IMG/VR virus record: IMGVR_UViG_3300010355_000975
Direction: 5' to 3' (one strand)
Source of the DNA: a virus
Taxonomy: Duplodnaviria; Heunggongvirae; Uroviricota; Caudoviricetes
Length of the DNA: 64,000 nt
The notes under the pieces were generated by a model. It was not told the DNA's origin and searched no databases. It worked only from the letters and a program-made list of their open reading frames with translations. The position numbers and the translations under genes were made by a program. Below, one piece after another: positions 17,682-60,838 of this stretch; positions within the stretch are counted from its first letter, which is position 1, and the number at the start of each line of letters is the position of its first letter.

Positions 17682-17696
17682 AGGAGAATGAATTAA

Positions 17697-46956: not shown

Positions 46957-46984
46957 TTAAATACTTAACTAAAGGAGAAGAAAA

Positions 46985-47299: not shown

Positions 47300-47311
47300 A
47301 GGAGAAAATTA

Positions 47312-47773
47312 ATGAATTATGTAACACCAAAATACGCTCAAAATAGCGTTGTTTATTTAGTTATTCAAAATAACATTTATAAATGTATTGTATTAGAAAT
47401 TATTATCAAATACCTCATTGATAAAACAGAAATTATTTATTCTTTACGCCCCTATGGATTACGACCAACTGATGCCGTACAAGCAAATGAAACAGAACTT
47501 TATGCAACACTTAATACAGCTAAACAAATTGCTCATAATCAATTGAACAATAATCTAAGTAAAGAAAAACTTCAAAAAGCATATCGAGAAAATTTAAAAA
47601 AGATCACTGAAAAGTATGAACCATTGATTAAAAATTATAAAAAAGAAATGAAGAAATTACATGATTTTATTGATAATGTAAACGATGCAACTTATGATGA
47701 AAAAGAAGAAAATTATCAAAAATCATTAACTGAAAAGGATGTTGAAAATGTCAACGAATCTCCAAAAGTTTAA
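47312..47773 (+). CDS. hypothetical protein
   Basis: RBS AAAGGAGAAAATTAATG. Confidence 0.45.
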   Translation: MNYVTPKYAQNSVVYLVIQNNIYKCIVLEIIIKYLIDKTEIIYSLRPYGLRPTDAVQANETELYATLNTAKQIAHNQLNNNLSKEKLQKAYRENLKKITEKYEPLIKNYKKEMKKLHDFIDNVNDATYDEKEENYQKSLTEKDVENVNESPKV

Positions 47774-48044
47774 TGTTAATGATGATGTCTATATTGTGCA
47801 AGATTATAAAATTAGCAAAGCGAAGGTGTTGGCTGTTTTACAAGTGATTGAAGAAAAGAATGCTTACATTGAATACCGCTTAATGTGCAGAGATAATAAA
47901 GTAAGATTAATTAATCAAGCATATTTAGTAAATACATTAGATCAAGCAAAAAAAGCGGCAACTACAAACATGGAACGAATTTATGTTCAAGTGATTGAAT
48001 CAATTAAAAATTTAACAGAAGAACAATTAACTGATGGTAAATGA
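47748..48044 (+). CDS. hypothetical protein
   Basis: Internal Met start MSTNLQKF. Confidence 0.4.
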   Translation: MSTNLQKFNVNDDVYIVQDYKISKAKVLAVLQVIEEKNAYIEYRLMCRDNKVRLINQAYLVNTLDQAKKAATTNMERIYVQVIESIKNLTEEQLTDGK

Positions 48045-48789
48045 TTGTATCATAATTGGTGGCGGTTCATCTATTCGCCCAAATAGAATTATTCCAATAG
48101 AAGAATTAGATGTTTGGAAAAAAATAAAACATTCTTTCACTATTGGAACCAATTTTACATATAAATGGTTTATACCGACTGTTCAAATGTTTGGCGATCA
48201 TCAGTTTTATTATGCTTTACAAAATGAATTATCACAATTGCCTTTAGTAATTGGAAATAAAGATCGGAAGTTTTATAAAGCAGGAAATAAACGAGTTAGC
48301 CCAAATACGCATTTAATTATTGGTAGCAGAATTTATAATGGAATTGATTCAATACGTAAGGGTCTTTATTGTTATCAATTAATTGGAATGGCGGCTATTT
48401 CATTTGCTATTGGATTACAATGTAAAAACATTTATTTATTAGGGTATGATTGTTGTGCTATTAATGGTCATACCCATTTTTATTCAATGGAAGAAGGCAG
48501 TTATACTTATAATAATATTAAAAGAACAGGGATTGGACAGTTTTTTAATGAGCGATTAAAAAAGATTGTTTATAGATCACAACCTTATGATGATATAGAT
48601 AGATTAAATAATTATTGGTTTGCGCCATTTAAACAAGCATTAAATGAAGGAATTAACATTTTTAATGTATCTGAACAAAGTGTTTTAAATGTGTTTCCAA
48701 AAATAAATTATGATGAATTTTATAAAAAAATTGCATTGATTAATCATCAACAAAATGAAATTCGGCAATTTATTAAAGAAAGATTATAA
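48034..48789 (+). CDS. DUF115/MptE-like protein (Maf-type putative glycosyltransferase)
   Basis: N-terminal 'DCIIIGGGSSIRPN' resembles the (c)ivGnGPSL start of motility-accessory-factor/MptE-like proteins. Call is tentative. Confidence 0.35.
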   Translation: MVNDCIIIGGGSSIRPNRIIPIEELDVWKKIKHSFTIGTNFTYKWFIPTVQMFGDHQFYYALQNELSQLPLVIGNKDRKFYKAGNKRVSPNTHLIIGSRIYNGIDSIRKGLYCYQLIGMAAISFAIGLQCKNIYLLGYDCCAINGHTHFYSMEEGSYTYNNIKRTGIGQFFNERLKKIVYRSQPYDDIDRLNNYWFAPFKQALNEGINIFNVSEQSVLNVFPKINYDEFYKKIALINHQQNEIRQFIKERL

Positions 48790-48883
48790 TGAAATCAACA
48801 ATTACATTTGCCGTATCTATTATAACAGCACTACTTGGATCAATAATTTATATTATTAATTTAATCAATAAGAGTTTAAAAAA

Positions 48884-49288
48884 ATGAAGTCTTTAAAAAT
48901 TTGGGGAATAGTAAATACTTTATTTGAATCTGATCATTGTAAAATTGACCACTTATATATTCGTAAAGATACTGCATGTAGTTTGCATTATCATAATAAA
49001 AAGTTTAATAGATTCATTTTACTAAAAGGAAATGTTCATATTATTACTGATTTAGGCGATTATCAATTAAAATTAGATGAGCCATTTGATATTGAACCAG
49101 CAATTATTCATCAATTTAGAGCATTTCAAAATAGTTTTGTATTAGAAATAGCATATACTATAAAAGAACCTTTAGAAGAAAATGATATTATTCGGATTAA
49201 ACAAGGTGGCGAATTTATTGATGGTAAATTCTTTACATTGGATGAATTAAAAAACCAAAAGTTAAAAAACTATAATGATTATGAATAA
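48884..49288 (+). CDS. cupin-fold protein (possible sugar isomerase/epimerase-like)
   Basis: 134 aa. 'SLHYHNKKFNRFILLKGNVHI' has a two-His cupin-like motif. Confidence 0.35.
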   Translation: MKSLKIWGIVNTLFESDHCKIDHLYIRKDTACSLHYHNKKFNRFILLKGNVHIITDLGDYQLKLDEPFDIEPAIIHQFRAFQNSFVLEIAYTIKEPLEENDIIRIKQGGEFIDGKFFTLDELKNQKLKNYNDYE

Positions 49289-49715
49289 ACAGATAAAGGT
49301 AATGACTATTGGCGTGTATGATCTATTACATAGAGGTCATATTATATATTTAAATTTGGCAAAATCATTGGGCGATAAATTAATAGTTGGTATAATGAGT
49401 GATCAATTTACTAAAAAACAAAAAAAACATGCGCCTATTCAGAACCAAAAAGATAGACGTTTTGCAGTACAAAATCTAAAATGTGTTGATGAAACATTTA
49501 TTTATACAAAGTCAGATTATTTAAAATATTTTAAAAACTTTAATGCAGACATTTTTTATTTAACATATGAATGTAAGAATGATCCTCGATTTAATCCATT
49601 GCTTAATTATATTGAAAAAACCAATAAAAAAATGGTATATGTAAAAATTTCAAAAAGTTTTAAACAAAAATATTCAAGTTCTTTAATTAAAAAACGAATT
49701 CAAGGAATAAAATGA
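49275..49715 (+). CDS. TagD-like cytidylyltransferase (glycerol-3-phosphate cytidylyltransferase family)
   Basis: 'TIGVYDLLHRGH' (GxFDxxHxGH). 'IMSDQFTKKQKK...NLKCVDE' parallels TagD 'ISTDEFNLQKQKK...RYVDEV'. Confidence 0.6.
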   Translation: MIMNKQIKVMTIGVYDLLHRGHIIYLNLAKSLGDKLIVGIMSDQFTKKQKKHAPIQNQKDRRFAVQNLKCVDETFIYTKSDYLKYFKNFNADIFYLTYECKNDPRFNPLLNYIEKTNKKMVYVKISKSFKQKYSSSLIKKRIQGIK

Positions 49716-50086
49716 AATTAATAAAAATAAGCGAGTTAAAACCAATTGAAGGGCATAGTAAGAAACGTGTTAATTGGCTTAAAAATAAGATTATTAAAGA
49801 ACAAATTTGGACAAAACCGATTTGTATTGAACAAAAATATAATATTGTTTTAGATGGTATGCATCGGTTCGAAGTTGCTAAATTATTAAAAATGAAATAT
49901 ATTCCTTGTGAATTGTTTGATTATAACGATGTTAAAGTTTGGAGTTTAAGGTCAAATCATATTATTACTGCAAGTATTGTGATTGAAAAAATTAAACAAG
50001 GATATATTTATCCTTTTAAAACTGTTAAGCATGATTTTTTATCAATCATTAAGTTATGTAATATACCATTAAAAGAGTTATTATAA
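49712..50086 (+). CDS. ParB/sulfiredoxin-like nuclease-domain protein
   Basis: 'IKISELKPIEGH...PICIE...VLDGMHRFEVAKLLKMKYIPCEL' resembles the ParBc/Srx fold consensus. Confidence 0.4.
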   Translation: MKLIKISELKPIEGHSKKRVNWLKNKIIKEQIWTKPICIEQKYNIVLDGMHRFEVAKLLKMKYIPCELFDYNDVKVWSLRSNHIITASIVIEKIKQGYIYPFKTVKHDFLSIIKLCNIPLKELL

Positions 50087-51294
50087 TGAATTTTAGAGCT
50101 GTTACTTTAGGATTCACGCCTTCAACATCTAAACAAAATGATTTAGATAATATTTATTCTTTTTTTACTAAATTCCATTCTATTTTCCCCAATTATTATA
50201 TTCATACCAAAAGACTAACTGTGCCAACAATTCGCCTTGAGCATATTCTTTCGTCACAAATCAATGATTGTTATTCTCAAATTTTTGAACTTTGTAACCG
50301 AAGTAATATCCGATGGTTTTGTTTACCATTTATACCAACTAAAAGCACAAGTAATAACGATTATAATCAATTATTGCATATATGTTTAAAAGAAAAAGTA
50401 TTTATTAATTTGTTGGCAACACATAATAATAATAGTATTTTATGTGATAAGATTCCTTTAATGAGCGAGTTTATAAAAAATGCTAGTAAAATATCAAGTA
50501 ATGGTTATCAAAATTTTAAAATAGGTGTGTCTTGTAATTGTTCTTCAAATTTCCCATTTTTTCCTTTTTCATATCATGGACATACTCAAAATGGGTTTTC
50601 ATTGGCATTAGAATTGATCCCATTATTTATTAATACAATAAAACAATATCCAAATAGTAGTTTATTAAAAATTAAAGAAATATTGATTAAAAATCTATCA
50701 TCAGAATTATTGACAATAAATACTTTAGCTAAACAAATTGAACAAGATACTGGATTCTCTTATTTTGGCGTTGATGCGGCAATAGCACCATTTCCAAATA
50801 AAGAGCACAGTATTATGAATATATTTTCCTTATTAGACACTAAAGCATTTGGTGATTATAGCACATTGTTTTTAACATCATTCTTAACGGATATTATAAA
50901 AACGTCGATTAAACAGACGAAAATACAAAGCATTGGATTTAATGGTGTAATGTTTTCAATATTAGAAGATAATGGCTTGGCAGAAAGTGATTCTAATTTA
51001 TTTTCAATTGATTCATTAATGCTTTATTCTTCAGTGTGTGGATGTGGTATAGATATGGTTCCTGTTCCTGAAAATATTTCTATAAATGAAATTGGGAAAA
51101 TAATTTTAGATGTATCTGCTTTATCAATTGTATTAAAAAAACCGTTGGGCGTTAGATTATTACCAATACCAAATAAACAAGCACATGAAGTAACTAATAT
51201 AAACCACGATTTTATTTGTAATAGTTATATTAAAAATATTAAAAATGGGTGTAATAATAAACGGATTTTTCAAAATGTCTATAAATACTTTTGA
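50086..51294 (+). CDS. DUF711/UPF0210 family protein
   Basis: 'NFRAVTLGF' start. C-terminal 'GFNGVMFSILEDNGLAE...LMLYSSVCGCGIDMVPVPEN...ALSIVLKKPLGVRLLPIP' parallels UPF0210 'GGLSGAFIPVSEDEGM...AICSVGLDMIAIPED...IGVINMKTTAVRIIP'. Confidence 0.5.
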   Translation: MNFRAVTLGFTPSTSKQNDLDNIYSFFTKFHSIFPNYYIHTKRLTVPTIRLEHILSSQINDCYSQIFELCNRSNIRWFCLPFIPTKSTSNNDYNQLLHICLKEKVFINLLATHNNNSILCDKIPLMSEFIKNASKISSNGYQNFKIGVSCNCSSNFPFFPFSYHGHTQNGFSLALELIPLFINTIKQYPNSSLLKIKEILIKNLSSELLTINTLAKQIEQDTGFSYFGVDAAIAPFPNKEHSIMNIFSLLDTKAFGDYSTLFLTSFLTDIIKTSIKQTKIQSIGFNGVMFSILEDNGLAESDSNLFSIDSLMLYSSVCGCGIDMVPVPENISINEIGKIILDVSALSIVLKKPLGVRLLPIPNKQAHEVTNINHDFICNSYIKNIKNGCNNKRIFQNVYKYF

Positions 51295-51973
51295 AGTAAA
51301 AAAATTTTGGTTACAGAGATCAAAAGAACAACTACCAATGGATTCATTGAGCTGTTTAGAAAATAATCCATTTTTGGTTAAAATAAAATTGTTTTTAGAA
51401 TCACAAAAAATTCGTAAATACATACAAGATTTAAAAGGAATACATTGTTTAGATTTAGGTTCTGGTACTGGATATTGGAGCCGGGTTTTAAGTCAGTATT
51501 TTCAACATATTGATTCGGTTGAGTATATTAAAAATTTTATTAATTTATCACAAAACGAAGATAAGAAACAAAAAATTAACAATATAAAATATTATAATCA
51601 AAGTGTGAATAATTTTAGGTCAGTTAAAAAATACGATATGATTTTTATATCAGGATTATTTATTTATTTGACGGATTATCAGATTGTTAATTTATTTATT
51701 CAAATAATAAAATATTCGAAAAAAGGAACATATATTATTTTGCGAGATGGAACAAGCATATTGCCTCATCAATATGAATTCAACTCTAAATATTCACATT
51801 TATTAAACAGTAAATATAGTGCTATATATCGAACACGCCAAGAATATTTACATATTTTTGAGCAATATGGATTTAAATTAATAAAAGATGAAGATATGTT
51901 TACTAATAATATATTATTAAATAAATTCCGTGAAAAAAAATTAAGAATCTATCTATTCCAAAGGACAAAATAA
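51275..51973 (+). CDS. class I SAM-dependent methyltransferase
   Basis: Motif I 'CLDLGSGTGYW'. Confidence 0.55.
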   Translation: MSINTFEVKKFWLQRSKEQLPMDSLSCLENNPFLVKIKLFLESQKIRKYIQDLKGIHCLDLGSGTGYWSRVLSQYFQHIDSVEYIKNFINLSQNEDKKQKINNIKYYNQSVNNFRSVKKYDMIFISGLFIYLTDYQIVNLFIQIIKYSKKGTYIILRDGTSILPHQYEFNSKYSHLLNSKYSAIYRTRQEYLHIFEQYGFKLIKDEDMFTNNILLNKFREKKLRIYLFQRTK

Positions 51974-52536
51974 TGAGTCTATTACCAATTGATTTTAAAA
52001 AATATCAAAATGAATACGCAATTGAATGCAAAGCAATTCAGGAATATTTTCGGATAAATTTTAATGTTCCAGTCTTTTTAGTTTATGGAACATTATTAGG
52101 ATGCGTTCAAAGTCAATCCTTTATTTCTTTTGATGATGATATTGATTTATCTTATATGAGTAATAAACATACTGCTCAAGAAGTTGTTCAAGAAATGAAA
52201 ATGTTTTATGAAAAATTAAATGCAGATGGCTTATTGGCCCATATTAAAAATCATACTGGTCAAGCATGGGTTTATAGTCCAAGTAAAAATATAATGGTTG
52301 ATATGTGGACATCATGGACAGATGCGAATAATAAATTTTATTGTGTTAATTGGGTAGATGGCTGTTTTCACAAAGATAGTGTTGTACCGTTTGCAATTGG
52401 TAAATTAGCAAATGAAAAATTTTTTATTCCAAAACAACATGCCCAACTTTTACAATATTGGTATGGAGATTGGAAAACGCCTCAACCACGAAAAAAGCAC
52501 ATGAGAATGTCGTATTATTTACCAAAGGAAAAATAA
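51973..52536 (+). CDS. LicD-family phosphotransferase
   Basis: 'VYGTLLGCVQSQSFISFDDDIDL' matches LicD 'YGTLLGAVRH.GFIPWDDDID'. Confidence 0.6.
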   Translation: MSLLPIDFKKYQNEYAIECKAIQEYFRINFNVPVFLVYGTLLGCVQSQSFISFDDDIDLSYMSNKHTAQEVVQEMKMFYEKLNADGLLAHIKNHTGQAWVYSPSKNIMVDMWTSWTDANNKFYCVNWVDGCFHKDSVVPFAIGKLANEKFFIPKQHAQLLQYWYGDWKTPQPRKKHMRMSYYLPKEK

Positions 52537-53117
52537 TGAAACCAACACCGCAATCCCTATGGGGAATTAATTCGGATATTTCTTGGCAATGGCATTTAAA
52601 TTTTATCGGACAATACCAACAACATAATTATTATTTATATTATGTGATCGATAGAATTATGAGCCAAAATAATCAGATTACTAAAATTATTGAATTAGGC
52701 ACAGGATATGGTGCATTAACAATAGTACTTGGATTATGGGGTATTAAAAGAAATATTCCAGTATATACAGTTGATATTAGACCCAACAAAATTGACCCAA
52801 TTAAATCTGTTTTAGATTGTTTAAAAGTTACTATTTTAGAAAAAGATATTTATAGTGAGGAAACCACTAAAGATTTACAAACAATTATTGGAAATGAACC
52901 TGTTTTAATGGTTTGTGATGGTTTAGATAAAAGCATAGAACTGAATACATGGGTTCCTTTACTACCAAATAATAGCATTGTTTGCGGACATGATTATAGA
53001 ACAGAATGTATTCCTGAAAAAATTAAAGACATTACTGATAAACATTGTATTCCATTTGAAGAAGAGAATTGGGAAAAATTAAATGTCCAATTAGTTGTTT
53101 ACAAAAAGGTAAAATAA
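52536..53117 (+). CDS. class I SAM-dependent methyltransferase (CmcI/rhamnosyl-O-MTase-like)
   Basis: 'IIELGTGYGALT' motif I preceded by a W-rich segment. Confidence 0.45.
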   Translation: MKPTPQSLWGINSDISWQWHLNFIGQYQQHNYYLYYVIDRIMSQNNQITKIIELGTGYGALTIVLGLWGIKRNIPVYTVDIRPNKIDPIKSVLDCLKVTILEKDIYSEETTKDLQTIIGNEPVLMVCDGLDKSIELNTWVPLLPNNSIVCGHDYRTECIPEKIKDITDKHCIPFEEENWEKLNVQLVVYKKVK

Positions 53118-53707
53118 TGCCAGCAATCGATATTATAAAACATCTTATTAAACAATCGGGTATTGGATTAGGTAGTGGCGAACAATGCTATGATGCCATG
53201 TATACAATAGCTAGATCATTTCAAATTCAATCACTTGTTGAAATTGGTACATATAAAGCATATTCTACAATTGTATTTTGCCAAGCAATTTTAGATAATA
53301 AACAAACACCAACAATTTACACAACAGATCAATGGAATAATTATGGATTAGATATTGGTGTAGTTGAACCGGTGGCTAGAAAACATATTACTCAAATGAA
53401 TTTTGATCAATACATTAATGTGATTAAAGGGGATTCTGCTAAGACAATTCCTGAATTATTTAAATCAATTGGTAAAGTAGATATGTGTTTTATTGATGGA
53501 GATCATACATTAAACGGGGTTCAAACAGATTTTAATAATTGTAAGGATTATACTGATATTATTTTATTTCACGATGCATTATGTGGAAAGGATGTTAAAG
53601 AATTTCTTACAACAATTAAAGGGTGGACAATTATTACTTTTCCTACAAAATATATTGAGGGGGATAACCGGGATTTAGGAATTGCATTGGCGGTGAAAAA
53701 TATATGA
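53117..53707 (+). CDS. class I SAM-dependent O-methyltransferase (family 3-like)
   Basis: 'LVEIGTYKAYSTI' and 'CFIDGDHT'. Confidence 0.55.
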   Translation: MPAIDIIKHLIKQSGIGLGSGEQCYDAMYTIARSFQIQSLVEIGTYKAYSTIVFCQAILDNKQTPTIYTTDQWNNYGLDIGVVEPVARKHITQMNFDQYINVIKGDSAKTIPELFKSIGKVDMCFIDGDHTLNGVQTDFNNCKDYTDIILFHDALCGKDVKEFLTTIKGWTIITFPTKYIEGDNRDLGIALAVKNI

Positions 53708-54705
53708 AAATCTTAATAAAAACATTCTATGGCACATATGAATATTTTCAAAATAATCGATTCGAATCACATTGTAGTACCTATTATACTTTATTGTTTA
53801 GAGAAATTTTTCGTAGATTAGGACATACATGTGATTTATTTGGAAAAGTTGCTATACCTAATGAAATAGTAAATGATTATAGTGGTTATGATATGATTTT
53901 ATTTTGGGGATTAGAATCATTTCTTTTTGATCTTGAATTTTCTAAAGGCGTGTTGCAACATTTTAAAGGCAAAAAATGTTTATACATTACTGCACAAATC
54001 ACACATTCATTGATTCATTTATTTGATTATATTTTTCCATGTGAAGTACCACAATATCAATTATTTTATGAAAAACAATACCCAACGGCAAAAACACGAT
54101 TAGTTAATTTTGCATCACCCCTTTATGATTTTGTAGATTCGGACACAATTAATCCATATAATGATACCTTATTTAAAACAATTTATACAGGAATTATTAC
54201 TGGACGATCTAAACAAATATTAAATGAATTAGCTGAAAGAGAAATCAATTTATATATTGGCGGCATTTATGCGCCTCCTGATGGTAGTTCATGCCGGCAT
54301 GTATCGCTAACTGAAATGCAAAATGAATTTAGCCAAAAAATACATTGGCTTACTAATACAGGCAATTTTCCTTATGGTTCACATTTTAAATATTTAAAAT
54401 ACGCTGATGTTGGACTAAATTTTTACCCAACACCCTATTTAACTTCAATCCCAATTAATAGTAAAATAATTGATTATCTTGTGTGTGGGCTTCCTATTGT
54501 TAGTGAAAATGCTTCACCAAATAATTTTAGAATTACTGATTTAAATGCTGGTGAAATTGTTCAATGGTATAACATTGACGAAATATATAATGCAATTCAA
54601 AAAATCAAAACATCATCTATGAATCGTAATCAAATTAAACAATCGGCCAGACAAATCTTTGATCCATTATCAATTGGTCAAACTATTTTACAGGAGATAA
54701 AATAA
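53704..54705 (+). CDS. putative glycosyltransferase (GT-B-like C-terminal half)
   Basis: 'KIIDYLVCGLPIVSEN' resembles the GT1/GT4 C-terminal donor-binding region. Otherwise novel. Confidence 0.3.
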   Translation: MKILIKTFYGTYEYFQNNRFESHCSTYYTLLFREIFRRLGHTCDLFGKVAIPNEIVNDYSGYDMILFWGLESFLFDLEFSKGVLQHFKGKKCLYITAQITHSLIHLFDYIFPCEVPQYQLFYEKQYPTAKTRLVNFASPLYDFVDSDTINPYNDTLFKTIYTGIITGRSKQILNELAEREINLYIGGIYAPPDGSSCRHVSLTEMQNEFSQKIHWLTNTGNFPYGSHFKYLKYADVGLNFYPTPYLTSIPINSKIIDYLVCGLPIVSENASPNNFRITDLNAGEIVQWYNIDEIYNAIQKIKTSSMNRNQIKQSARQIFDPLSIGQTILQEIK

Positions 54706-55259
54706 TGCCTACTTCTCATTGGTCATACATTACCAAGATTGTTAATGTTATTAAATTAAAAAATCCACAATCTATGCTAGAGATTGGATTAGGCTTTGGC
54801 AAATACGGCGTTCTAGCTAGAGAATACCTAGAAGTTTATGGTGCAAATCGATGGCAAAAAAAAGAATGGAAAGTTCAGATTGATGGCGTAGAAATTTATA
54901 CACCTTATATTACTGAACAAATTAAGCATTATTATAATACTATTTATAATGATGATATTGTCAAATTATTCAAAGAAAATAAACTAGGTAATTATGATCT
55001 AATTTTAATGACTGATGTATTAGAGCATTTGAATAAAGAAGATGGAAAGTTTGTTTTTGATCAAATTTTATCTCATTCAAAAACTGCTATATTTGCTGTT
55101 CCATTAGGCGATTGGCGATATACTTTTGATGGAGATAATAAAAATGAATCGCATATTTCAGTATGGGAGTATAAGGAATTTATTCATAAATCTTTAAAAG
55201 ATAGTAAAACTTATCCTGTATCAGGCAAAAAAATTGGGGTATTTATTTATGAAAATTAA
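54705..55259 (+). CDS. class I SAM-dependent methyltransferase
   Basis: 'MLEIGLGFGKYG' and 'ILMTDVLEHL'. Confidence 0.6.
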   Translation: MPTSHWSYITKIVNVIKLKNPQSMLEIGLGFGKYGVLAREYLEVYGANRWQKKEWKVQIDGVEIYTPYITEQIKHYYNTIYNDDIVKLFKENKLGNYDLILMTDVLEHLNKEDGKFVFDQILSHSKTAIFAVPLGDWRYTFDGDNKNESHISVWEYKEFIHKSLKDSKTYPVSGKKIGVFIYEN

Positions 55260-56214
55260 TGACTTAACAGTATTTATTATCACTACTGGTAAAAACATTA
55301 ATTATCCAGATTGTATTAAAGCATTACAGAAGCAATCTTTCTCATTTAAAGTGGATATTATTAGAGAGTATTCGCCTTTATCAGTTGCTTTTCAAGAAAT
55401 GCTAAATAGATGTACTACGAAGTATTTTATCCAAGTTGATGAAGATATGGTATTGCAACCAAATGCCATTGAAACATTATATAATAGTATTAAAAATCAA
55501 TCACAGTATAGCATGATTTGTTATTCATTAAATGATGTACATTATGGTATTGATATATTAGGAATTAAAATATATGACCATGATATTTTTAAACAATTTC
55601 CTTATAATACCACGCATCCAAGTTGTGAAGTAGAACAATTAGAACGAGTAACCAATGCAGGATATAAATGGCTATCTTATTCAAATGTAGTTGGGCAACA
55701 CTCACCAAAATGGACAAGTGAGGAGATTTTTAATCGTTACAATGTATTAGTCAAAAAACAAAAATTATTAGCTGGCACATGCGGATTTGGTAACATTCAG
55801 CAAACATTAGTAAATAGATTAAAAAATAAATTTAGTTCATTAGATTTTTTTGCCTTACTAGGAGCTAACTCTGCTTTAACATCACCCGCCTTTAATTCTG
55901 AAAAAAATTATAAAAAAACCAATCCTGATTATTTACATTATGAACAGTCATATTCTGATTTACTTATAGAATATAAACCATTGAATATTTTATTTCTATA
56001 TGATGTTGACGGATGGGTGTTTGATTTTGAAACTAGAGCATACAAACAATTTAGCTCACACAACATTATTAGAAAAAAATTTAATACCATTGGCGATTCA
56101 ATTACAAAAAATGATTTAAAAGATATAGATATTTTACTTATTCCCGGAAGTTGTCACTATAAGCATTTAAATGATTTAGGAATAATTAAATTTGCTAAAC
56201 AACAGAAAATTTAA
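55249..56214 (+). CDS. family 2 glycosyltransferase (3' end truncated by tandem duplication)
   Basis: 'LTVFIITTGKN...QKQS' and 'QVDEDM' (DxD-like). Confidence 0.5.
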   Translation: MKINDLTVFIITTGKNINYPDCIKALQKQSFSFKVDIIREYSPLSVAFQEMLNRCTTKYFIQVDEDMVLQPNAIETLYNSIKNQSQYSMICYSLNDVHYGIDILGIKIYDHDIFKQFPYNTTHPSCEVEQLERVTNAGYKWLSYSNVVGQHSPKWTSEEIFNRYNVLVKKQKLLAGTCGFGNIQQTLVNRLKNKFSSLDFFALLGANSALTSPAFNSEKNYKKTNPDYLHYEQSYSDLLIEYKPLNILFLYDVDGWVFDFETRAYKQFSSHNIIRKKFNTIGDSITKNDLKDIDILLIPGSCHYKHLNDLGIIKFAKQQKI

Positions 56215-56328
56215 TACCATTACAAAAAATGATTTAAAAGATATAGATATTTTACTTATTCCCGGAAGTTGTCACTATAAGCATTTAAATGATTTAGGAA
56301 TAATTAAATTTGCTAAACAACAGAATAT
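56081..56328 (+). repeat. tandem direct duplication (130-bp copy + 118-bp copy) at the GT2/GT4 gene junction
   Basis: 56081-56210 matches 56211-56328 except for a 12-bp indel (ggcgattcaatt) and a few mismatches. Confidence 0.85.
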
Positions 56329-58285
56329 TAAAATAGTTGTTCAATATAATTCAGAAATTGAATTAGATTTGCCAAATTATATAACCAACTGTGATTTAGC
56401 AGTAGCTAGTTCGCCAGATATTTATGCTAGATTAAATGGCGATCAAAAAAATTTACAATTCATTCCCCATTTTATTGATACTCATTATTGGGAAGATACA
56501 TCAGATACTAATACATTTAAAATAGGATGGGTTGGAAACCCCGAATGTAAAGTCAAAAACTTTGATCTTTTAAAAGAATTAAATTTTCCTGTTCAAATCC
56601 AAAGTAATTATGGAAAAAAATTTTTTAAAGTAAATCGTACATTACAAGAAATGAAGGACTTTTATAAAGAGATAGGAATACTTTTAATTTTAAGTGAATC
56701 AGAAGGTACTCCAATGCCTCTCTTGGAAAGTGCGGCATCTGGTAAAGTTGTTATTTCCACCAATACAGGATTAGCTACTGAATTATTATCTCCTGAATTT
56801 ATTATTGATAAACAAAAAAATATTGTTGAACAAGTTAATAGTATTTTAGAAGATTTAAAAAATAATCCTGAAAAAATAATTACTATTGGCAAAGAAAATA
56901 GAAAAAAAGTTGTTCAAAAAAACGATTGGTTTACAAATGTTTTATGGCTTGATAATGTCTATACTCAATTATTCAATAAATCTACTAAAAAAATTAAAGT
57001 TGTCCAATTAGCAAGAGTTCCTTGTGCTAATTCAGGTTATTATTTAAGTCAATTATTAAACGAATATTCTACTGAATTTGAATCTCGTTATATTCTTGGT
57101 TCAGATTATTCTGGTAAACGCCCTGATATTGTACCATTTAGAAAATTTCCAACTGATTTATCTTGGCAAACTCAAAAAGAAGAATGTATTAAAGTGATTC
57201 AAGAAGCAGATATTGTTCATATCCATCATGGATTTTGGGGAGATACAAAAGAAATTCAAGATTTACTAAAAGACAAAAAGGTTATTACAACTATTTATGA
57301 TTTATCTTTAGAAAATAATACGGGATATTATAATAGAAAAAATCAAATTTCAACCTTACTTACTGTTGCAGATCAGCCAGCCCAAAAGCGAGTTTTTTCA
57401 AAATGGTCAACTACTTATGTACCATTAGTTAATTGTTTATTTAATGAAACCATTATAAAAAATAATCCAGAACCAGTAATTGTTTATGCTCCAACAAATA
57501 GATACCCTATCACTAATTCAAGCTCTAAAGGATATAATGAAGTATTAAAAATTATTAATAATTTAAAAAAACAAGGATTAAAATTTACTTTTGATTTAAT
57601 TGAAGGCGTTCCACACGAAGAAGATTTGAATAGAAAAAGAAAAGCGGATATTATTATTGATGATGTAATCAACAATACTTTTCATAACACGTCGATTTAC
57701 GGGGCTTGCTTTGGAGCAATTGCTATTACAGGACATTCTAGCAAAGAATACCCTTTTATTTATGCTAATTTAAATACTTTAGAAGAAACATTAAAATACT
57801 ATATTACTAATCCAGAAATTCTTAAAAAAGAACAAGAAAAATTAACACAATGGAGAACAACAATTTATACTCCACAAAATCTTTTAGCATCTTATGAAAA
57901 TTTATATCATAATACTTTAACACTCACAAAGAAAACAGAAATTGTTCAGCCATTAATGAATGCACAAGAAGTGTTGCTTGATTTAATAAAGATTTGCCAA
58001 AAGAATAATTGCCCCATTTGTTTATTACAGAAAACTTGTTATGAAATTGTTAATTGCCAAAAAATAATTACTAATAAATTATGGATTGGAATTAATTTAA
58101 CTGATAAGATTAAACAAGTGCTACTGAATAATAAATACCAATGCTTAAATGATTTATGGATTAAAGATAAAATTTCGATTCATTTTTTGCCTTATCCAAA
58201 TAAAACAAAAAAATGGCCTATTCGGGGATTAGTGACAAACGTTCCTTACCCAGTGGTAGGATATTTAAAACAAAGATGGCATTAA
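56192..58285 (+). CDS. family 4 (GT-B) glycosyltransferase, no ATG at its 5' end
   Basis: 'ESEGTPMPLLESAASGKVVISTNTG' (GT4 E-x7-E region). The ORF begins inside duplicated sequence, and its first in-frame ATG is ~150 codons in. Confidence 0.55.
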   Translation: MLNNRKFNTITKNDLKDIDILLIPGSCHYKHLNDLGIIKFAKQQNIKIVVQYNSEIELDLPNYITNCDLAVASSPDIYARLNGDQKNLQFIPHFIDTHYWEDTSDTNTFKIGWVGNPECKVKNFDLLKELNFPVQIQSNYGKKFFKVNRTLQEMKDFYKEIGILLILSESEGTPMPLLESAASGKVVISTNTGLATELLSPEFIIDKQKNIVEQVNSILEDLKNNPEKIITIGKENRKKVVQKNDWFTNVLWLDNVYTQLFNKSTKKIKVVQLARVPCANSGYYLSQLLNEYSTEFESRYILGSDYSGKRPDIVPFRKFPTDLSWQTQKEECIKVIQEADIVHIHHGFWGDTKEIQDLLKDKKVITTIYDLSLENNTGYYNRKNQISTLLTVADQPAQKRVFSKWSTTYVPLVNCLFNETIIKNNPEPVIVYAPTNRYPITNSSSKGYNEVLKIINNLKKQGLKFTFDLIEGVPHEEDLNRKRKADIIIDDVINNTFHNTSIYGACFGAIAITGHSSKEYPFIYANLNTLEETLKYYITNPEILKKEQEKLTQWRTTIYTPQNLLASYENLYHNTLTLTKKTEIVQPLMNAQEVLLDLIKICQKNNCPICLLQKTCYEIVNCQKIITNKLWIGINLTDKIKQVLLNNKYQCLNDLWIKDKISIHFLPYPNKTKKWPIRGLVTNVPYPVVGYLKQRWH

Positions 58286-58287
58286 TT

Positions 58288-59016
58288 ATGTGTAAAATTG
58301 GATTTATTATAACTACATTTGAAAGAGATGATTTATTAAAGCATACGGTTAATGCTTTGCGCCAATTTAAATTACCTAATTGGGAAATTATTATAGTTGA
58401 CCAATCCCCTTCTGAAGAAAAAATACATCTGTATTCTGATTGTAATTATACATCCATTCCTCACAATTCTGGTTTATCTTTTGCAAGAAATCAAGGTGTG
58501 AAAATAGCTAATCAAATAGAATGTTCTTATTGTGTTATTATGGCAGATAGTATTTGCCCATTATTTGATTGTATAAAAATTAATGCTTTACTTCCTTCTT
58601 TAGAAACTTATGATTATATTGGATTAAATTTAATTAATCGAAATCAAGAAAGTTATTGGATTGGCAAAATTAATTTAATACCAGAAAAAGGATTTGAATT
58701 AGAAAAAATTATTGTGCCAGAAGATGGACAAATTCATCCAGTTGAAATAATTAAAAATTTTTTTATTGCTAAAACATCAACTCTATTAACTCATCAATGG
58801 GATGAAAAATTATTATTGGCTGAACATGAAGATTATTTTTGGCGAGCGAAATTATTAAATTATAAAATAGGATTTATTAAATTAAATGTGGGCAAATACA
58901 TTGGAAAAGAAATAACCAATTTAGAATACAAAAAACTTCGTAAACAAAATTGGAATCAAAGTTTAAAATTACTTAAACAAAAATACAGTATAAAAGGATG
59001 GGTAATTTATAAATGA
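58288..59016 (+). CDS. family 2 glycosyltransferase
   Basis: 'IGFIITTFERDDLL...IIIVDQSP'. Start could be 58279 instead. Confidence 0.5.
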   Translation: MCKIGFIITTFERDDLLKHTVNALRQFKLPNWEIIIVDQSPSEEKIHLYSDCNYTSIPHNSGLSFARNQGVKIANQIECSYCVIMADSICPLFDCIKINALLPSLETYDYIGLNLINRNQESYWIGKINLIPEKGFELEKIIVPEDGQIHPVEIIKNFFIAKTSTLLTHQWDEKLLLAEHEDYFWRAKLLNYKIGFIKLNVGKYIGKEITNLEYKKLRKQNWNQSLKLLKQKYSIKGWVIYK

Positions 59017-59423
59017 TTTTACATGGTTCAATTATGTTAAATAATGCTGGCAAATTCAATGAATTTGTTAAAGATAACGCTATTGTATTACAAAAATACT
59101 TTGGCGTTTTTTTATTTCCCGGATCAATTAATGTAATGATTAAAGATTTTCCTAATCTACATTCTTTTTTAGATACTAAATTATTACCTGATTTTATTAT
59201 TCCTAAAGAAGAATTAATCAACATGCCTTCTTATTTAGGCAATGGACAAGCATGGAGATGTCAATTAATTAATGAAAAATGGGGTAAAATTGATGCATGG
59301 GTATTTAGACGAATTAATTCTAAAGTAAGAAAAAATAGTTTAGAAATTGTTTCAGATAAAGAACTTAATAAACCTTATAATTTGTCAAATAATGACGAAG
59401 TTCTCATTACTATTGACAAATAA
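59013..59423 (+). CDS. hypothetical protein
   Basis: ORF coupled to the preceding gene. Confidence 0.4.
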   Translation: MILHGSIMLNNAGKFNEFVKDNAIVLQKYFGVFLFPGSINVMIKDFPNLHSFLDTKLLPDFIIPKEELINMPSYLGNGQAWRCQLINEKWGKIDAWVFRRINSKVRKNSLEIVSDKELNKPYNLSNNDEVLITIDK

Positions 59424-60232: not shown

Positions 60233-60247
60233 AATGGAGGGTATCTA

Positions 60248-60823: not shown

Positions 60824-60838
60824 AATTGGGGGGAAAAA

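Follow-up and report, generated by a model that had tools for sequence, protein, structure and literature searches.

An uncultivated tailed phage with a genome of ~97 kb carries a 14-gene locus that is very probably devoted to a glycan whose cap is added by a LicD-family enzyme and supplied by a swappable CDP-alcohol cassette. Among related phages, the framework of this locus is constant and the cap-making genes are swapped; polysaccharide loci of many bacteria and archaea also contain the cap-making module of this phage, which is uncharacterised there. The best explanation overall, a phage locus for glycan assembly and decoration with the donor route proposed below and a virion-type acceptor, has an even chance of being right. 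Two of its parts are put forward tentatively, each at somewhat less than even probability: that the predicted cap is a phospho-base (phosphoethanolamine or phosphocholine type), and that the acceptor is a virion protein. The analysis covered the window (the whole stretch of DNA studied, 64 kb) and ~4.4 kb past its right-hand end, read from contigs L014 and L015; ~33 kb of the genome lie outside the window.

Layout and phage context of the locus

As annotated in the window, 48034-59423 holds 15 co-oriented ORFs (Table 1), which a preliminary description had counted as fifteen genes. The intact locus is 14 genes plus three small upstream ORFs, since ORF12 and ORF13 are one gene. At most junctions the genes overlap (-1 to -14 nt), the bigger apparent overlaps being accounted for by upstream alternative start codons, and there are just two intergenic gaps, of 94 nt (3' of ORF1) and 209 nt (3' of ORF15). 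P1 is the top-scoring sigma-70-like site of the region, and both P1 and P2 match perfectly a phage promoter motif that occurs 10 times in the window vs. 2.06 expected (none of 100 shuffles reached 10). These two copies bracket 46985-59423, which suggests one transcription unit, and the whole locus appears to be transcribed as such over ~12.5 kb. The small upstream ORFs keep their position in the related phages L021, L022, and L031, with 40-45% amino acid identity vs. ~80% in flanking genes; VR0, compared between the window and L021, has no nucleotide homology.

Table 1. Features of the glycan locus and its neighbours, in window coordinates.
Feature	Position	Strand	Length	Description	Evidence
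P1	46927..46961	+		Promoter-like site, candidate start of the cluster transcription unit	TTGACAA-N15-TGTGGTATACTTTAAA
Small upstream ORFs	46985..48044	+	104, 153, 101 aa	Three ORFs in the cluster's unit	
VR0	47296-47891			Variable region, holds the 153-aa ORF	
ORF1	48034..48789	+	251 aa	Maf/GT42/MptE-fold (DUF115) glycosyltransferase-like, invariant first gene	
ORF2	48884..49288	+	134 aa	Cupin, mannose-6-phosphate-isomerase C-terminal type	Pfam PF01050 MannoseP_isomer 5.5e-6, above cutoff
VR1	49290..52283	+		Exchangeable donor cassette (ORF3-ORF6 and 5' part of licD)	
ORF3	49275..49715	+	146 aa	Class-I (HxGH) cytidylyltransferase, ECT/TagD/CCT-like, predicted maker of the CDP-activated donor	
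ORF4	49712..50086	+	124 aa	ParB/Srx fold; relative of the free serine kinases SerK/SbnI (catalytic N-domain); predicted small-molecule kinase	
ORF5	50086..51294	+	402 aa	DUF711/UPF0210, core of the conserved module	Pfam 5.2e-56; PDB 2ha9 3.5e-31
ORF6	51245..51973	+	242 aa (232 aa from ATG at 51275)	Class-I SAM methyltransferase	Pfam, above cutoffs
ORF7	51973..52536	+	187 aa	LicD-family phosphotransferase	Pfam LicD 31.5 bits (cutoff 22.6)
ORF8	52536..53117	+	~193 aa	Probable class-I methyltransferase, framework gene	Weak Pfam match; ELGTGYG motif
ORF9	53117..53707	+	196 aa	Methyltransf_24/O-methyltransferase-like	Pfam 5.6e-16; Methyltransf_3 4.9e-6; gene call in L014
ORF10	53704..54705	+	333 aa	Conserved framework protein, possibly GT-B-like	Weak
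ORF11	54705..55259	+	184 aa	Class-I methyltransferase	Weak Pfam match
ORF12+ORF13	55249..58285	+	968 aa intact	One glycosyltransferase: GT2, GT4, divergent GT-B, small C-terminal domain	
Tandem duplication	56096..56331	+	118 nt	Copies 56096-56213 and 56214-56331; frameshifts the 968-aa gene	
VR2	58267-59451			Variable region, holds ORF14	
ORF14	58276..59016	+	246 aa	GT2 glycosyltransferase	Pfam 1e-8
ORF15	59013..59423	+	136 aa	CTP-dep_RFKase/DUF120-like (CTP-dependent-riboflavin-kinase-like), accessory gene	Pfam 25.4 bits (cutoff 25)
P2	59413..59447	+		Promoter-like site, starts the next unit	
Downstream unit	59633..62143	+	191 aa (middle ORF)	MT-A70 DNA methyltransferase, 191-aa ORF, DUF2793 tail-fibre-like protein	Pfam MT-A70 3.1e-30, DUF2793 9.7e-19; PHROG tail fibre match

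The phage genes present include those for NrdD, primase, UvsX, PolB, SbcCD, integrase, and endolysin; bacterial ribosomal protein S21 (bS21) is encoded directly upstream of the cluster, and a virion structural protein is encoded just past the window end on the contigs that cover it. Composition and GC are uniform, each cluster gene has the same GC3 as the phage background, and neither composition nor GC3 reveals a prophage boundary around the cluster. Contigs of four metagenomes match the window at 99.6-100% identity, and the locus junctions are reproduced on several long contigs (50-200 kb). Together with a fixed place in related phages, these data confirm that the cluster is genuine and sits inside a phage, as originally described. 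The MT-A70 (3e-30) and DUF2793 genes reported downstream are indeed there. MT-A70 is an insertion relative to L021, and this unit is treated here as a neighbour rather than as a putative part of the pathway.

The exchangeable donor cassette

In a blastn comparison with L021, the window shows ~80-84% identity on either side of VR1 and no homology inside it. The right-hand boundary, 52283, falls within licD, with homology resuming at 52284, so the donor-side part of LicD (its 5' two-thirds) moves with the donor genes; the left-hand boundary is at 49290.

ORF3 carries the motif GVYDLLHRGH and matches Pfam CTP_transf_like (2.8e-16). Its PDB matches are 3glv (1.2e-16), human ECT (3elb, 1.5e-14), TagD (1coz, 3.5e-11), and CCT (1e-6). 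The NCBIfam TagD match (6.2e-14) reaches 52 bits against an equivalog cutoff of 165, and RfaE domain II and human ECT both score better than TagD. ORF4 has no Pfam match and is recognised by the NCBIfam models SbnI (7.5e-8) and SerK (1e-7), at scores far under their equivalog cutoffs; its alignment covers SbnI 11-127 and SerK 21-118, and it retains the Glu and the DGxHR motif common to both kinases and lacks their C-terminal domain. Its bacterial counterparts are 42-51% identical, and some are fused to NTP_transferase. ORF5 belongs to a family in which the CGCGxDM and GFNGVM motifs are invariant, and whose fold class is a ten-stranded barrel of the RNR/PFL type (PMC4390871). ORF6 is nearest to the MT1 domains of phosphoethanolamine N-methyltransferases (PMT). 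Its top four PDB matches are all PMTs (6.6e-9 with the single sequence), and an 8-member family profile finds four PMT structures at 5.3e-24 to 3.1e-17 (next best 5e-15) and aligns to nearly the entire MT1 domain of HcPMT1, although similarity among class-I methyltransferases predicts substrate imperfectly. ORF7 contains GTLLG...DDDID, and its match to the LicD model covers the N-terminal motif only; it also matches the NCBIfam Mf1 cholinephosphotransferase (1.3e-9). The ParB/Srx-like and DUF711 proteins, whose families had been named correctly, are not bystanders of the cluster: both are conserved core of the donor cassette.

Framework genes

The Maf fold of ORF1 is that of a protein O-glycosyltransferase, at a score below the Pfam family cutoff. 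The ORF2 cupin belongs to the conserved framework and lies outside the donor cassette: it is 78% identical in L021 and present in L031, and related cupins occur in L029 and L030. ORF8 is 92% identical in L021 and 77% in L022, and orthologue profiles of ORF8 and ORF11 match the ORF6 methyltransferase family (hhalign probability 89.9%, and 96.3% across 115 columns, respectively). The count of four class-I methyltransferases stands; of the further statement that at least two are O-methyltransferase-like, ORF9 alone remains, ORF6 being N-methyltransferase-like.

The four glycosyltransferases first proposed fare unequally. GT4 (ORF13 N-terminal part, 4.5e-10) and the GT2 of ORF14 hold, the GT2 of ORF12 is borderline (22.6 bits vs. 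a cutoff of 23.3), and the GT-B-like reading of ORF10 comes from weak matches (Glycos_transf_1 E = 0.002, under cutoff; a profile that finds exclusively GT-B enzymes in the PDB, at E 0.15-0.7). An additional GT-B domain occupies the C-terminal 435 aa of ORF13; hhalign gives no match between it and ORF10. ORF12 and ORF13 are split in the window because the tandem duplication shifts the frame. The duplication occurs in this assembly only: in otherwise identical contigs of other metagenomes the two form a single gene, and L014 and L015, without it, are 99.6-100% identical to the window elsewhere. ORF14 shares 40% amino acid identity with its L021 counterpart, without nucleotide homology. ORF15 is missing from L021, and its L023 copy is 48% identical. 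All of the families named in the preliminary description thus hold at least at the fold or profile level (Pfam, NCBIfam, PDB, hhalign).

Membrane segments are absent from all cluster proteins, the products being soluble throughout, and the cluster genes include no flippase, polymerase, or priming phosphoglycosyltransferase. The pathway is not self-contained, as had been supposed, because nucleotide-sugar synthesis genes are absent from the cluster.

Distribution of the locus and of its donor module

A search of related phages, which the preliminary description had proposed, found the locus in the same place in L021, L022, and L031, with differing cassettes; in four related phages its position is fixed between SbcCD and the downstream genes. 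The backbone and ORF1 are common to all three, and the cupin to L021 and L031. The cassette of L021 encodes an IspD-SDR fusion and a HAD-type protein, that of L022 a 215-aa ORF, a GT2, DUF2284, an SDR, and a TagD-like cytidylyltransferase (1.7e-25), and that of L031 a sulfotransferase and radical-SAM enzymes; the donors of L021 and L022 seem to be of the polyol type. ORF1-like, LicD, cytidylyltransferase, SDR, GT2, and ORF13 C-domain sequences are also encoded on eight viral contigs from IMG/VR, whose GC ranges over 26-57%. Far from being a one-off, the cluster is, by these comparisons, part of a widespread, variable glycan locus of a ~90-100-kb uncultivated tailed phage lineage, with parts in more distant phages.

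Of 75 bacterial and archaeal species that carry the DUF711 subfamily of ORF5, 64 have a SerK-like gene, 53 a methyltransferase, and 61 and 58 each of two nucleotidyltransferases. The kinase-DUF711-methyltransferase core, always with a nucleotidyltransferase, is a fixed module of nearly constant order in 50-64 of the 75 species. The two bacterial nucleotidyltransferases are unlike ORF3 in fold, and one is without phage counterpart. These modules reside in Wzx/Wzy polysaccharide loci, adjoining LicD, CDP-alcohol phosphotransferases, or AlkP-type enzymes, and include gene fusions of NTP_transferase with the SerK-like kinase and of DUF711 with the methyltransferase (P0062 and P0085).

Proposed pathway

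From the families, synteny, cassette boundaries, and co-occurrence observed, we infer a route with the following substrates and order of steps. Up to six glycosyltransferase domains (ORF1, the GT2-GT4-GT-B triple enzyme, ORF14, and perhaps ORF10) would assemble a cytoplasmic oligosaccharide from host nucleotide sugars, and ORF8, ORF9, and ORF11 would methylate it. ORF7 would then add a phospho-alcohol cap from a CDP-activated donor made by the exchangeable cassette. In this cassette, ORF4 is predicted to phosphorylate serine or another small hydroxy compound like it, and ORF5 would convert the product, possibly by decarboxylation to phosphoethanolamine, perhaps on a nucleotide-linked form; decarboxylation is given to DUF711 by elimination, as the missing step. 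ORF6 may N-methylate the ORF5 product, and ORF3 may form the CDP derivative. The donor transferred by LicD would be CDP-(N-methyl)ethanolamine or of the CDP-choline type, and the cap phospho-N-methylethanolamine or phosphocholine, made de novo. A methylated, phospho-alcohol-substituted glycan, as first suggested, is what the apparently co-transcribed glycosyltransferases, methyltransferases, and cytidylyltransferase/LicD pair lead one to expect.

Acceptor, cap, and alternative explanations

The lack of membrane segments in the cluster proteins and the recurrence of the locus in phages of 26-57% GC make a phage-intrinsic acceptor most likely, with a virion protein as first candidate. Retention of the framework across phages with necessarily very different hosts and the Maf fold of ORF1 may both be counted toward this reading. 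Soluble phage enzymes, such as prophage TarP, can nonetheless target host lipid-linked or teichoic-acid precursors. It is possible, if rather unlikely, that the locus acts in the cytoplasm on precursors of this kind and changes the host surface during infection or lysogeny, which could prevent superinfection or adsorption of progeny to debris. Serotype conversion usually takes one to three genes, far fewer than are present here, and the locus occupies a constant core-genome place and is not moron-like, although the phage encodes an integrase and the exchange of cassettes looks like serotype variation. LicD normally decorates teichoic acids, LOS, or capsules (PMC10434233), envelope remodelling is the role proposed for a licD-ispD pair in Flandersviridae (Benler et al., 2021, PMC8008677), and the bacterial relatives of the donor module are located in surface-polysaccharide loci. 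Up to six glycosyltransferase domains, however, come without membrane protein, flippase, polymerase, or ligase, and hosts of phages so different in GC cannot have one envelope polymer in common.

The preliminary description had paired a TagD-like enzyme with LicD and predicted a glycerol-phosphate substituent. The pair is upheld. A glycerol-phosphate cap (or one of a different polyol phosphate), made through a TagD-type CDP-glycerol synthase with ORF4-ORF6 unrelated, is improbable: the TagD matches of ORF3 and the apparent polyol-type donors of L021 and L022 are in its favour, but ORF3 falls far short of the TagD cutoff, and the conserved partners of ORF3 suggest a phospho-base of amino-alcohol type rather than CDP-glycerol. 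ORF3-ORF6 are, moreover, swapped as a single block with the donor-side part of licD, their core is a fixed module in bacteria, and the phage lacks a reductase of the type paired with polyol cassettes.

Hypermodification of DNA, in which the glycosyltransferases and LicD would decorate modified bases against restriction, is very improbable. Multi-sugar DNA glycans of phages are described (Pyle et al., 2024, via PMC12619734), and the locus lies downstream of replication/recombination genes and upstream of a DNA methyltransferase; MT-A70 is, however, in a separate unit and missing from L021, and a scan of ~40 window ORFs revealed no base-modification enzyme, thymidylate-synthase-like hydroxymethylases included. 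The similarity to T4 is a general feature of the GT-B fold. We know of no precedent for LicD, Maf-like enzymes, or sugar O-methyltransferases acting on DNA. Finally, a host polysaccharide locus beside a prophage, or an assembly chimera, is largely refuted: bacterial homologues of ORF4-ORF6 do lie in chromosomal polysaccharide loci and short contigs of other assemblies end at ~52.7-52.9 kb and ~56 kb, but the junctions recur on several 50-200 kb contigs, three related phages have different content at the same position, GC and GC3 are uniform, phage promoter motifs and phage genes flank the locus on both sides, and the closest bacterial DUF711 is just 45% identical to ORF5.

Comparison with known systems

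Some 'Flandersviridae' phages of Bacteroides carry an insertion of licD and ispD (Benler et al., 2021). As here, a phage LicD and cytidylyltransferase are inserted beside the replication module, and L021 follows the same logic (IspD-SDR fusion and LicD). That insertion, however, is of two genes and sporadic, whereas LicD in the present locus belongs to a framework of 14 genes that includes up to six glycosyltransferase domains and four methyltransferases, and the donor genes here form a larger, distinct cassette (kinase, DUF711, N-methyltransferase, class-I cytidylyltransferase). The Lic-1 phosphocholine pathway consists of the LicB permease, LicA choline kinase, LicC cytidylyltransferase, and LicD transferase (PMC10434233). 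The order kinase, cytidylyltransferase, LicD, with a phospho-alcohol ending up on a glycan, is shared, but the phage locus has no LicA, LicB, or LicC homologues, its kinase is of the ParB/Srx fold, and its cytidylyltransferase is HxGH-type. DUF711 and the PMT-like methyltransferase imply that, unlike in Lic-1, the phospho-alcohol is synthesised de novo and not derived from exogenous choline, and none of the characterised bacterial ChoP routes in PMC10434233 is of this type. The ORF6 family resembles PMT MT1, and ORF3 resembles ECT/CCT, of the phospho-base methylation/Kennedy pathway of plants, nematodes, and Plasmodium. Eukaryotic PMTs are two-domain or Plasmodium-type and supply phospholipid synthesis; the phage and bacterial enzymes, by contrast, have a single domain, occur with DUF711 and a SerK-like kinase as linked genes or fusions, and, acting on their predicted substrate, would supply a glycan transferase.

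Mycobacteriophage virion glycosylation (Freeman et al., 2023, via PMC12619734) likewise uses soluble phage glycosyltransferases and O-methyltransferases on presumed virion-protein targets in the cytoplasm. Those systems consist of a few genes and lack LicD, a CDP-alcohol cassette, and any Maf-like enzyme; virion glycosylation is demonstrated in them and would be a prediction for the present locus. Maf flagellin glycosyltransferases and GT42 sialyltransferases (PDB 5mu5, 2p56) differ in that ORF1 has no Maf flanking domains at 251 aa and the phage cluster no nonulosonic-acid synthesis genes. A constant frame with swappable cassettes is also typical of bacterial O-antigen and capsule loci, and the donor module is common to the Wzx/Wzy loci, but Wzx, Wzy, Wzz, a priming transferase, export genes, and membrane proteins are all missing from the phage locus. 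Virus-encoded glycosylation is further known from chloroviruses and mimivirus, whose multi-domain GT(+MT) enzymes, e.g., the three-domain A064R, make capsid glycans without host membrane machinery. These giant viruses of eukaryotes are unrelated in sequence, but in a comparison at the level of fold class the architecture of the 968-aa GT2-GT4-GT-B protein is analogous.

Organization of the Locus

The fifteen ORFs called in the window between 48034 and 59423 very probably make up a phage glycan locus, in which a LicD cap is fed by a swappable CDP-alcohol cassette. All lie on the plus strand and follow closely on one another, most junctions overlapping by 1-14 nt, with gaps in just two places, 94 nt 3' of ORF1 and 209 nt 3' of ORF15; larger apparent overlaps are due to upstream alternative start codons. 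The preliminary description had counted fifteen genes, which is correct for the ORFs of the window, but the intact locus has fourteen. In contigs from other metagenomes that are 99.6-100% identical to the window, ORF12 and ORF13 form a single 968-aa triple-glycosyltransferase (GT) gene, whose frame is shifted in the window by a 118-nt tandem duplication (copies 97% identical) that is not found in two otherwise identical contigs (L014 and L015). The duplication may have arisen in assembly or be a genuine on/off variant; contigs from two other assemblies (L016 and L017) start near it. Short contigs from several independent assemblies (L001-L003, L014-L017) share ends at ~43.6-43.8, ~52.7-52.87, and ~55.9-56.2 kb, the second of which falls inside ORF8, 0.4-0.6 kb to the right of the donor-cassette right boundary (52283). 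These shared break points may reflect cassette variants coexisting in those samples.

Families were assigned by Pfam and NCBIfam searches, with weak cases retested using orthologue profiles. Each family named earlier was supported at some strength, ORF4 through NCBIfam rather than Pfam; the preliminary observation is confirmed, and its interpretation is supported in part. The cupin, DUF711, and LicD assignments stand, the last by an N-terminal motif only: ORF7 (187 aa) aligns to positions 6-39 of the 227-position LicD model rather than to its full length, carries the nucleotidyltransferase-type motif GTLLG...D(D)D.D (as YGTLLGCVQSQSFISFDDDIDL), and matches the NCBIfam Mf1 cholinephosphotransferase (1.3e-9) under the equivalog cutoff. 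ORF3 is a class-I cytidylyltransferase, with the HxGH motif present as HRGH inside GVYDLLHRGH, but the label TagD-like was too narrow, as it scores 52.2 bits against the TagD equivalog (TIGR01518) cutoff of 165.4, and RfaE domain II and ethanolamine-phosphate cytidylyltransferase (ECT) score higher. Its nearest PDB match is the archaeal 3glv, followed by human ECT (1.5e-14), TagD (3.5e-11), and choline-phosphate cytidylyltransferase (CCT). ORF1 has the fold of the Maf/GT42 catalytic domain, although it stays under the Pfam threshold. Two of the four proposed methyltransferases (MTases) clear their cutoffs, and orthologue profiles of the other two, ORF8 and ORF11, match the ORF6 MTase profile at 89.9 and 96.3% probability, respectively. 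Among the proposed GTs, ORF14 and the N-terminal part of ORF13 are secure (the latter as GT4, by Pfam), ORF12 is borderline, and ORF10 was still weakly GT-B-like after the profile retest; kinship of ORF10 with the GT-B C-domain of ORF13 was rejected (hhalign probability 0.4%). Single-sequence PDB searches gave no match for ORF1 and ORF10 and only non-significant ones for the 968-aa protein (E 0.035-0.27), and fold matches for these three needed structure prediction or profiles.

Features of the locus and the window, with family assignments (bits against Pfam cutoff)
Feature	Position	Assignment	Support
Locus, ORF1-ORF15	48034-59423 (+)	glycan locus (very probable)	
ORF1		MptE-like	weak; Maf/DUF115 (PF01973) 17.4 vs gathering threshold 34.6
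ORF2		cupin	above cutoff
ORF3		class-I cytidylyltransferase (PF01467)	above cutoff, 60.4 vs 21
ORF4		no Pfam family	SbnI/SerK matches in NCBIfam
ORF5		DUF711/UPF0210 (PF05167)	above cutoff, 190.6 vs 25
ORF6, ORF9		class-I MTases	above cutoff
ORF7		LicD (PF04991)	above cutoff, 31.5 vs 22.6, N-terminal motif only
ORF8, ORF11		MTase	weak in Pfam
ORF10		GT1	weak
ORF12		GT2 (PF00535)	borderline, 22.6 vs 23.3, below cutoff
ORF13, N-terminal part		GT4	above cutoff
ORF14		GT2 (PF00535)	above cutoff, 35.7 vs 23.3
ORF15		CTP-dependent-riboflavin-kinase-like	just above cutoff; not named earlier
VR0	47296-47891	variable block vs L021	
VR2	58267-59451	variable block vs L021, ORF14 + ORF15	
Small upstream ORF, 153 aa	in 47296-47891		
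Small upstream ORF	47739-48044		
Tandem duplication	56096-56213 / 56214-56331		118 nt
Perfect promoter-motif copies	46927-46961; 59413-59447		
Tenth promoter-motif copy	5755-5789 (-)		3 mismatches
Predicted transcription unit	46985-59423	three small ORFs + cluster	
PolB	in 36474-39191	family-B polymerase	
bS21	~41696-41881	ribosomal protein S21 (PF01165)	
Last window ORF	63125-63970		
DNA MTase pair	14-736 and 1106-1870 (-)	PHROG 67	about 1e-72 and 1e-78
Repeat-protein island	12213-14200	two repeat proteins	
145-aa ORF	19402-20233	short-chain dehydrogenase (SDR), C-terminal half only	4.2e-13
Diphosphohydrolase ORF	24913-25350	dATP/dGTP diphosphohydrolase N-terminal domain (PF18909)	7.4e-26
97-aa hydrophobic ORF	62286-62579	PnuC/NMN transporter (PF04973)	

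Phage Setting and Transcription

The locus lies within a phage, as had been claimed, and phage genes, uniform GC and GC3, and phage-gene flanks all support this. The window is AT-rich (~25-30% GC, higher at 12-14 kb), and the GC and GC3 of every cluster gene equal the phage background (GC3 0.13-0.18). It encodes NrdD and its activase, primase, UvsX, a family-B polymerase, SbcCD, an integrase, an endolysin, and DNA methyltransferases, while a 1106-aa virion structural protein is encoded on the opposite strand immediately beyond its end, past which the last ORF also extends as a longer gene (426 aa). An MT-A70 methyltransferase gene and one for a DUF2793 tail-fibre-like protein follow downstream, as described earlier. 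An identical DUF711 protein is recorded on contigs of up to 97,266 bp, and contigs with that protein or the fibre-like gene mostly belong to the 50-200 kb class, anaerobic-digester samples being among their sources; by megablast, the cluster as a whole had no match among GenBank phages. The PolB gene of the window may be split or rearranged: short ORFs and, at 38503, a copy of the promoter motif come after a 679-aa ORF, and in three related phage contigs (L021, 1-1442; L022, 1-1236; L031, 1-1180) the polymerase is joined to a Dam-like MethyltransfD12 domain in proteins of 1009-1491 aa, that of L031 carrying an intein.

A promoter-like motif of the sigma-70 type with extended -10, TTGACAA-N15-TGTxTATACTTTA, occurs 10 times in the window against 2.06 expected, a count reached in 0 of 100 shuffles. 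Its sites span 5071-59447 (e.g., 17251, 23765, 34551, 38503, 46927, and 59413), and nine of the ten copies are on the same strand as the surrounding genes, the tenth lying within an ORF. This suggests that the motif delimits transcription units and points to a bacterial host. From its two perfect copies, which bracket the three small ORFs and the cluster, we infer on sequence grounds that these form one predicted transcription unit; the MT-A70 and fibre-like genes would then be in the next.

The weak matches of PolB among deposited phages, solely to haloarchaeal viruses, together with the SerK, MptE, and CTP-dependent riboflavin kinase families, raised the idea of an archaeal virus. This was rejected because of the recurring extended -10 motif and a gene for the bacterial ribosomal protein bS21 (1706-1891 in the contig L001), which is kept in L021 and L031; motif and gene both favour a bacterial host. 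The 99-kb contig of the nearest phage relative (P0124/L021) is entered at NCBI within a 'Patescibacteria group bacterium' MAG, a label that may hint at the host unless it stems from a binning artefact.

Framework and Exchangeable Cassettes

The three related phages were reached via ORF1 homologues. Their backbone comprises PolB, a trypsin-like protease (missing from L022), MgtC, SbcCD, an SMC-like ATPase, two small ORFs, and ORF1. They carry the block in part: the backbone and ORF1 are kept at the same place, and the cassette content differs. In the window, ORF1 and the cupin are followed by a cytidylyltransferase, a SerK-like kinase, DUF711, and a phosphoethanolamine N-methyltransferase (PMT)-like MTase (ORF3-ORF6), and then by LicD. 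L021 (~80-84% nucleotide identity) has before LicD a HAD-type protein and an IspD-SDR fusion (ispD 1.5e-32), the domain pair of CDP-ribitol synthases. L022 (~40-80% amino acid identity) is without the cupin and has a 215-aa ORF, GT2, DUF2284, SDR, and a TagD-like cytidylyltransferase (1.7e-25) before LicD. L031, which has the backbone in common, continues from ORF1 and the cupin with radical-SAM enzymes, a sulfotransferase, and a GT2/Capsule_synth protein.

Framework proteins of the window and L021 are 72-92% identical overall (ORF8 92, ORF9 92, ORF10 83, ORF11 88, the large GT 72-76%), with lower values for ORF1 (50%), LicD (41%), and ORF14 (40%). DNA homology ends at 49289 and restarts at 52284, inside licD; therefore, the donor genes and the 5' two-thirds of licD were swapped as one block (VR1). 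Two further blocks, VR0 and VR2, are variable, and MT-A70 is an insertion relative to L021. The two small ORFs 5' of ORF1 keep their position in all relatives and diverge as ORF1 does (40-45% amino acid identity vs ~80% for their neighbours). They are candidate adaptor or acceptor proteins of the pathway; comparison showed that they are not paralogues of each other.

Locus-type genes extend to other viral contigs. An IMG/VR profile scan returned eight (26-57% GC) with combinations of ORF1-like, LicD, cytidylyltransferase, SDR, DUF2284, GT2, ORF15-like, and ORF8/10/11-like genes, in several cases directly after SbcD. Dozens of proteins contain the ORF13 C-domain, by itself or in a GT2+LicD+C-domain fusion; many of them are encoded on contigs of 60-140 kb, and some have inteins. 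DUF115-fold proteins are common in viral proteomes (19 BFVD matches, E<=0.001). Among the literature searches, one for LicD in viral contigs found none.

The Donor Cassette and its Relatives

ORF4 is, by its sequence, a putative SerK/SbnI-like small-molecule kinase. It matches the free serine kinases SbnI (7.5e-8) and SerK (1e-7) in NCBIfam and, as the earlier ParB/Srx-like label implied, aligns to their ParB/Srx N-domain (SbnI 11-127, SerK 21-118), keeping the Glu and the DGxHR motif common to the two, which have a catalytic role in these kinases. Its scores of 32 and 31 bits lie far below the equivalog cutoffs of 350 and 380, and at 124 aa, against ~245-255 aa, it lacks the C-terminal domain. 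ORF5 has the ten-stranded RNR/PFL-type barrel (profile vs the solved member 2ha9, 3.5e-31); literature searches found no function for DUF711/UPF0210. For a profile of ORF6 and seven module orthologues, the four best PDB matches are all PMTs (5.3e-24 to 3.1e-17), with ToxA next (5e-15). The alignment with Haemonchus PMT1 (4krg) takes in profile positions 5-197 and nearly the whole MT1 domain; FW..., (S/N)xLLxYL(N/S)D, LRE/D, and YR are seen in both, a resemblance at motif level.

In a gammaproteobacterium, Planctomycetota, a Bacteroidales MAG, and other organisms, Wzx/Wzy polysaccharide loci contain 40-50% identical copies of the ORF4-ORF5-ORF6 trio. Among 75 GTDB species carrying this DUF711 subfamily, gene order is nearly constant, with a SerK-like gene in 64, two nucleotidyltransferases in 61 and 58, and a methyltransferase in 53; at least 50-64 of the 75 possess the module of five genes (NTP-transferase, SerK-like kinase, NTP-transferase, DUF711, PMT-like MTase). 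Cultured carriers include Pantoea, Cedecea, Pseudomonas, Castellaniella, Roseovarius, Xanthomonas, and Agrobacterium strains, among them Pantoea dispersa S68 and Pseudomonas mangrovi TC11, and archaeal MAGs also carry it. Fusions join an NTP_transferase to the SerK-like protein and DUF711 to the MTase. Next to the module, the transferase is LicD, a CDP-alcohol phosphotransferase, or a soluble AlkP-superfamily protein, each of which fits a CDP-activated phospho-alcohol. 'Sulfatases' beside the bacterial modules L004, L009, L018, and L019 (e.g., L009 9957-11771) are soluble and have SAPST in place of the CxPxR formylglycine motif, and therefore look like AlkP-superfamily phosphotransferases/esterases. 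PEP-mutase genes beside the module in L009 pointed to phosphonate tailoring as a general link, but PEP mutase (Ppm) is absent from the window and near the module in just 1-3 of 75 genomes, so the module is not a phosphonate pathway.

The module was not matched in E. coli O-antigen loci of known structure, and a plasmid search returned only housekeeping DUF711 copies, annotated, where at all, as 'PFL family protein'. In phages, tblastn with DUF711 found only ~25% identical housekeeping-type copies; an IMG/VR scan with the single protein gave no match, and one with a profile gave three contigs. The viral contig L011 (IMG/VR UViG 3300025121_000011, 335 kb) encodes at 6784-18024 an NTP-transferase/SerK-like fusion, DUF711, and an MTase beside an AlkP/sulfatase-like protein, a sulfotransferase, a UDP-glucose dehydrogenase, and a GDP-mannose dehydratase that a LAGLIDADG intein interrupts. 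This contig may come from a giant virus or huge phage that has a glycan locus of its own.

A phospho-base is a tentative proposal for the chemistry of the cassette. Serine or a similar small hydroxy compound would be phosphorylated; DUF711 would catalyse a conversion, perhaps a decarboxylation and possibly on a nucleotide-linked form; and N-methylation, CDP activation, and LicD transfer would follow, the cap being a phospho-N-methylethanolamine- or phosphocholine-type group. For phosphocholine in bacteria, PMC10434233 reviews as characterised routes Lic-1 (dependent on exogenous choline), PmtA, Pcs, one by acylation, and PptA; soluble phospho-base methylation is absent from them. A 2025 survey of the ParB-CTPase fold covers SerK and SbnI, and a term search of its main text gave no mention of nucleotidyltransferase or polysaccharide.

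The Acceptor of the Glycan

A virion protein is the simplest phage-intrinsic acceptor, and a plausible one, though at somewhat less than even chances. Several arguments favour a phage-intrinsic acceptor. The cluster proteins all lack membrane-like segments (their hydrophobic 19-mers stay below 1.6), and Pfam found no flippase, polymerase, ligase, or priming transferase in the cluster. ORF1, the invariant first gene, has a protein O-glycosyltransferase fold; the framework is kept in phages whose hosts must differ widely; the large locus occupies a fixed core position; and DUF2793 fibre-like genes adjoin it in two distant members. The main alternative is an envelope glycan or host precursor, since LicD enzymes classically modify envelope glycans, the phage has an integrase, and soluble phage enzymes such as prophage TarP can modify host precursors; the membrane parts of Gtr-type or O-antigen serotype conversion (GtrA, GtrB, Gtr-type transferase, Wzx/Wzy) are all missing from the cluster. 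Placement of the glycan on phage DNA is unlikely, because the enzyme types of the cluster do not fit and no hydroxymethylase (thymidylate-synthase family) or other base-modification enzyme occurs among the ~40 ORFs scanned in the window or, of the ~33 kb of genome beyond it, in the ~4.4 kb past its right-hand end seen in L014/L015.

Relation to Known Systems

Most glycosylation known to be encoded by phages involves one to three genes (as in DNA glucosylation, Gtr/TarP serotype conversion, and mycobacteriophage GT/MT pairs), and the glycosylation machinery of giant viruses is a precedent from eukaryotic viruses with unrelated sequences. The Lic-1 pathway is alike in logic but differs in its enzymes and its need for exogenous choline, and the eukaryotic PMT/ECT/CCT phospho-base pathway delivers its product to phospholipids. 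The licD+ispD pair of some Flandersviridae is a precedent of two genes only (PMC8008677), and virion glycosylation by mycobacteriophage GT/O-MTase enzymes one of few genes. New here are the scale and operon organisation of the locus, the cassette-swapping architecture with its chimeric licD, and the SerK-like/DUF711/PMT-like module, a pathway not yet described. A complete operon is a fixed part of the genome in this phage lineage; it combines up to six GT domains with four methyltransferases and LicD capping, and cassette exchange like that of bacterial O-antigen loci diversifies its chemistry.

It is improbable, taken jointly, that the module represents a biosynthetic route of a categorically new kind and the locus a true virion 'serotype' locus. 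The former would be a soluble de novo route from serine to CDP-N-methylethanolamine/CDP-choline via kinase, DUF711, MTase, and cytidylyltransferase. If so, DUF711 would supply the missing conversion, the first function for this widespread family, which has a solved structure, and bacteria, archaea, and viruses would add zwitterionic phospho-bases to glycans without exogenous choline. In the latter, a glycan displayed by the virion would be diversified as cassettes are swapped along with the donor-binding half of LicD; with the glycan on the virion, phages would have serotype-like surface variation, bearing on host recognition, defence, immune evasion, and phage engineering. For the uncharacterised five-gene module, the analysis offers a genomic context and a testable hypothesis.

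Other Features of the Window

The two paralogous DNA methyltransferase genes at the left end sit in a GC-richer segment (0.36) and bring the DNA methyltransferases of the window to three, counting MT-A70. The equally GC-richer repeat-protein island (0.36), with many spurious overlapping ORFs on both strands, encodes one protein with an LbH-like (V/D/N)GASVG hexapeptide-repeat region and another with ~10 copies of a 31-aa repeat (LLEKIAVEDSAWSVRLEAVGKITNET), HEAT/PBS-like in appearance. The diphosphohydrolase ORF has the domain of a family known from MazZ of 2-aminoadenine (Z-genome) phages; PurZ was not seen among the ORFs scanned. The PnuC-like ORF, 3' of the fibre-like gene, is the sole membrane-like protein near the cluster, and the 145-aa ORF is possibly a truncated or split SDR gene.
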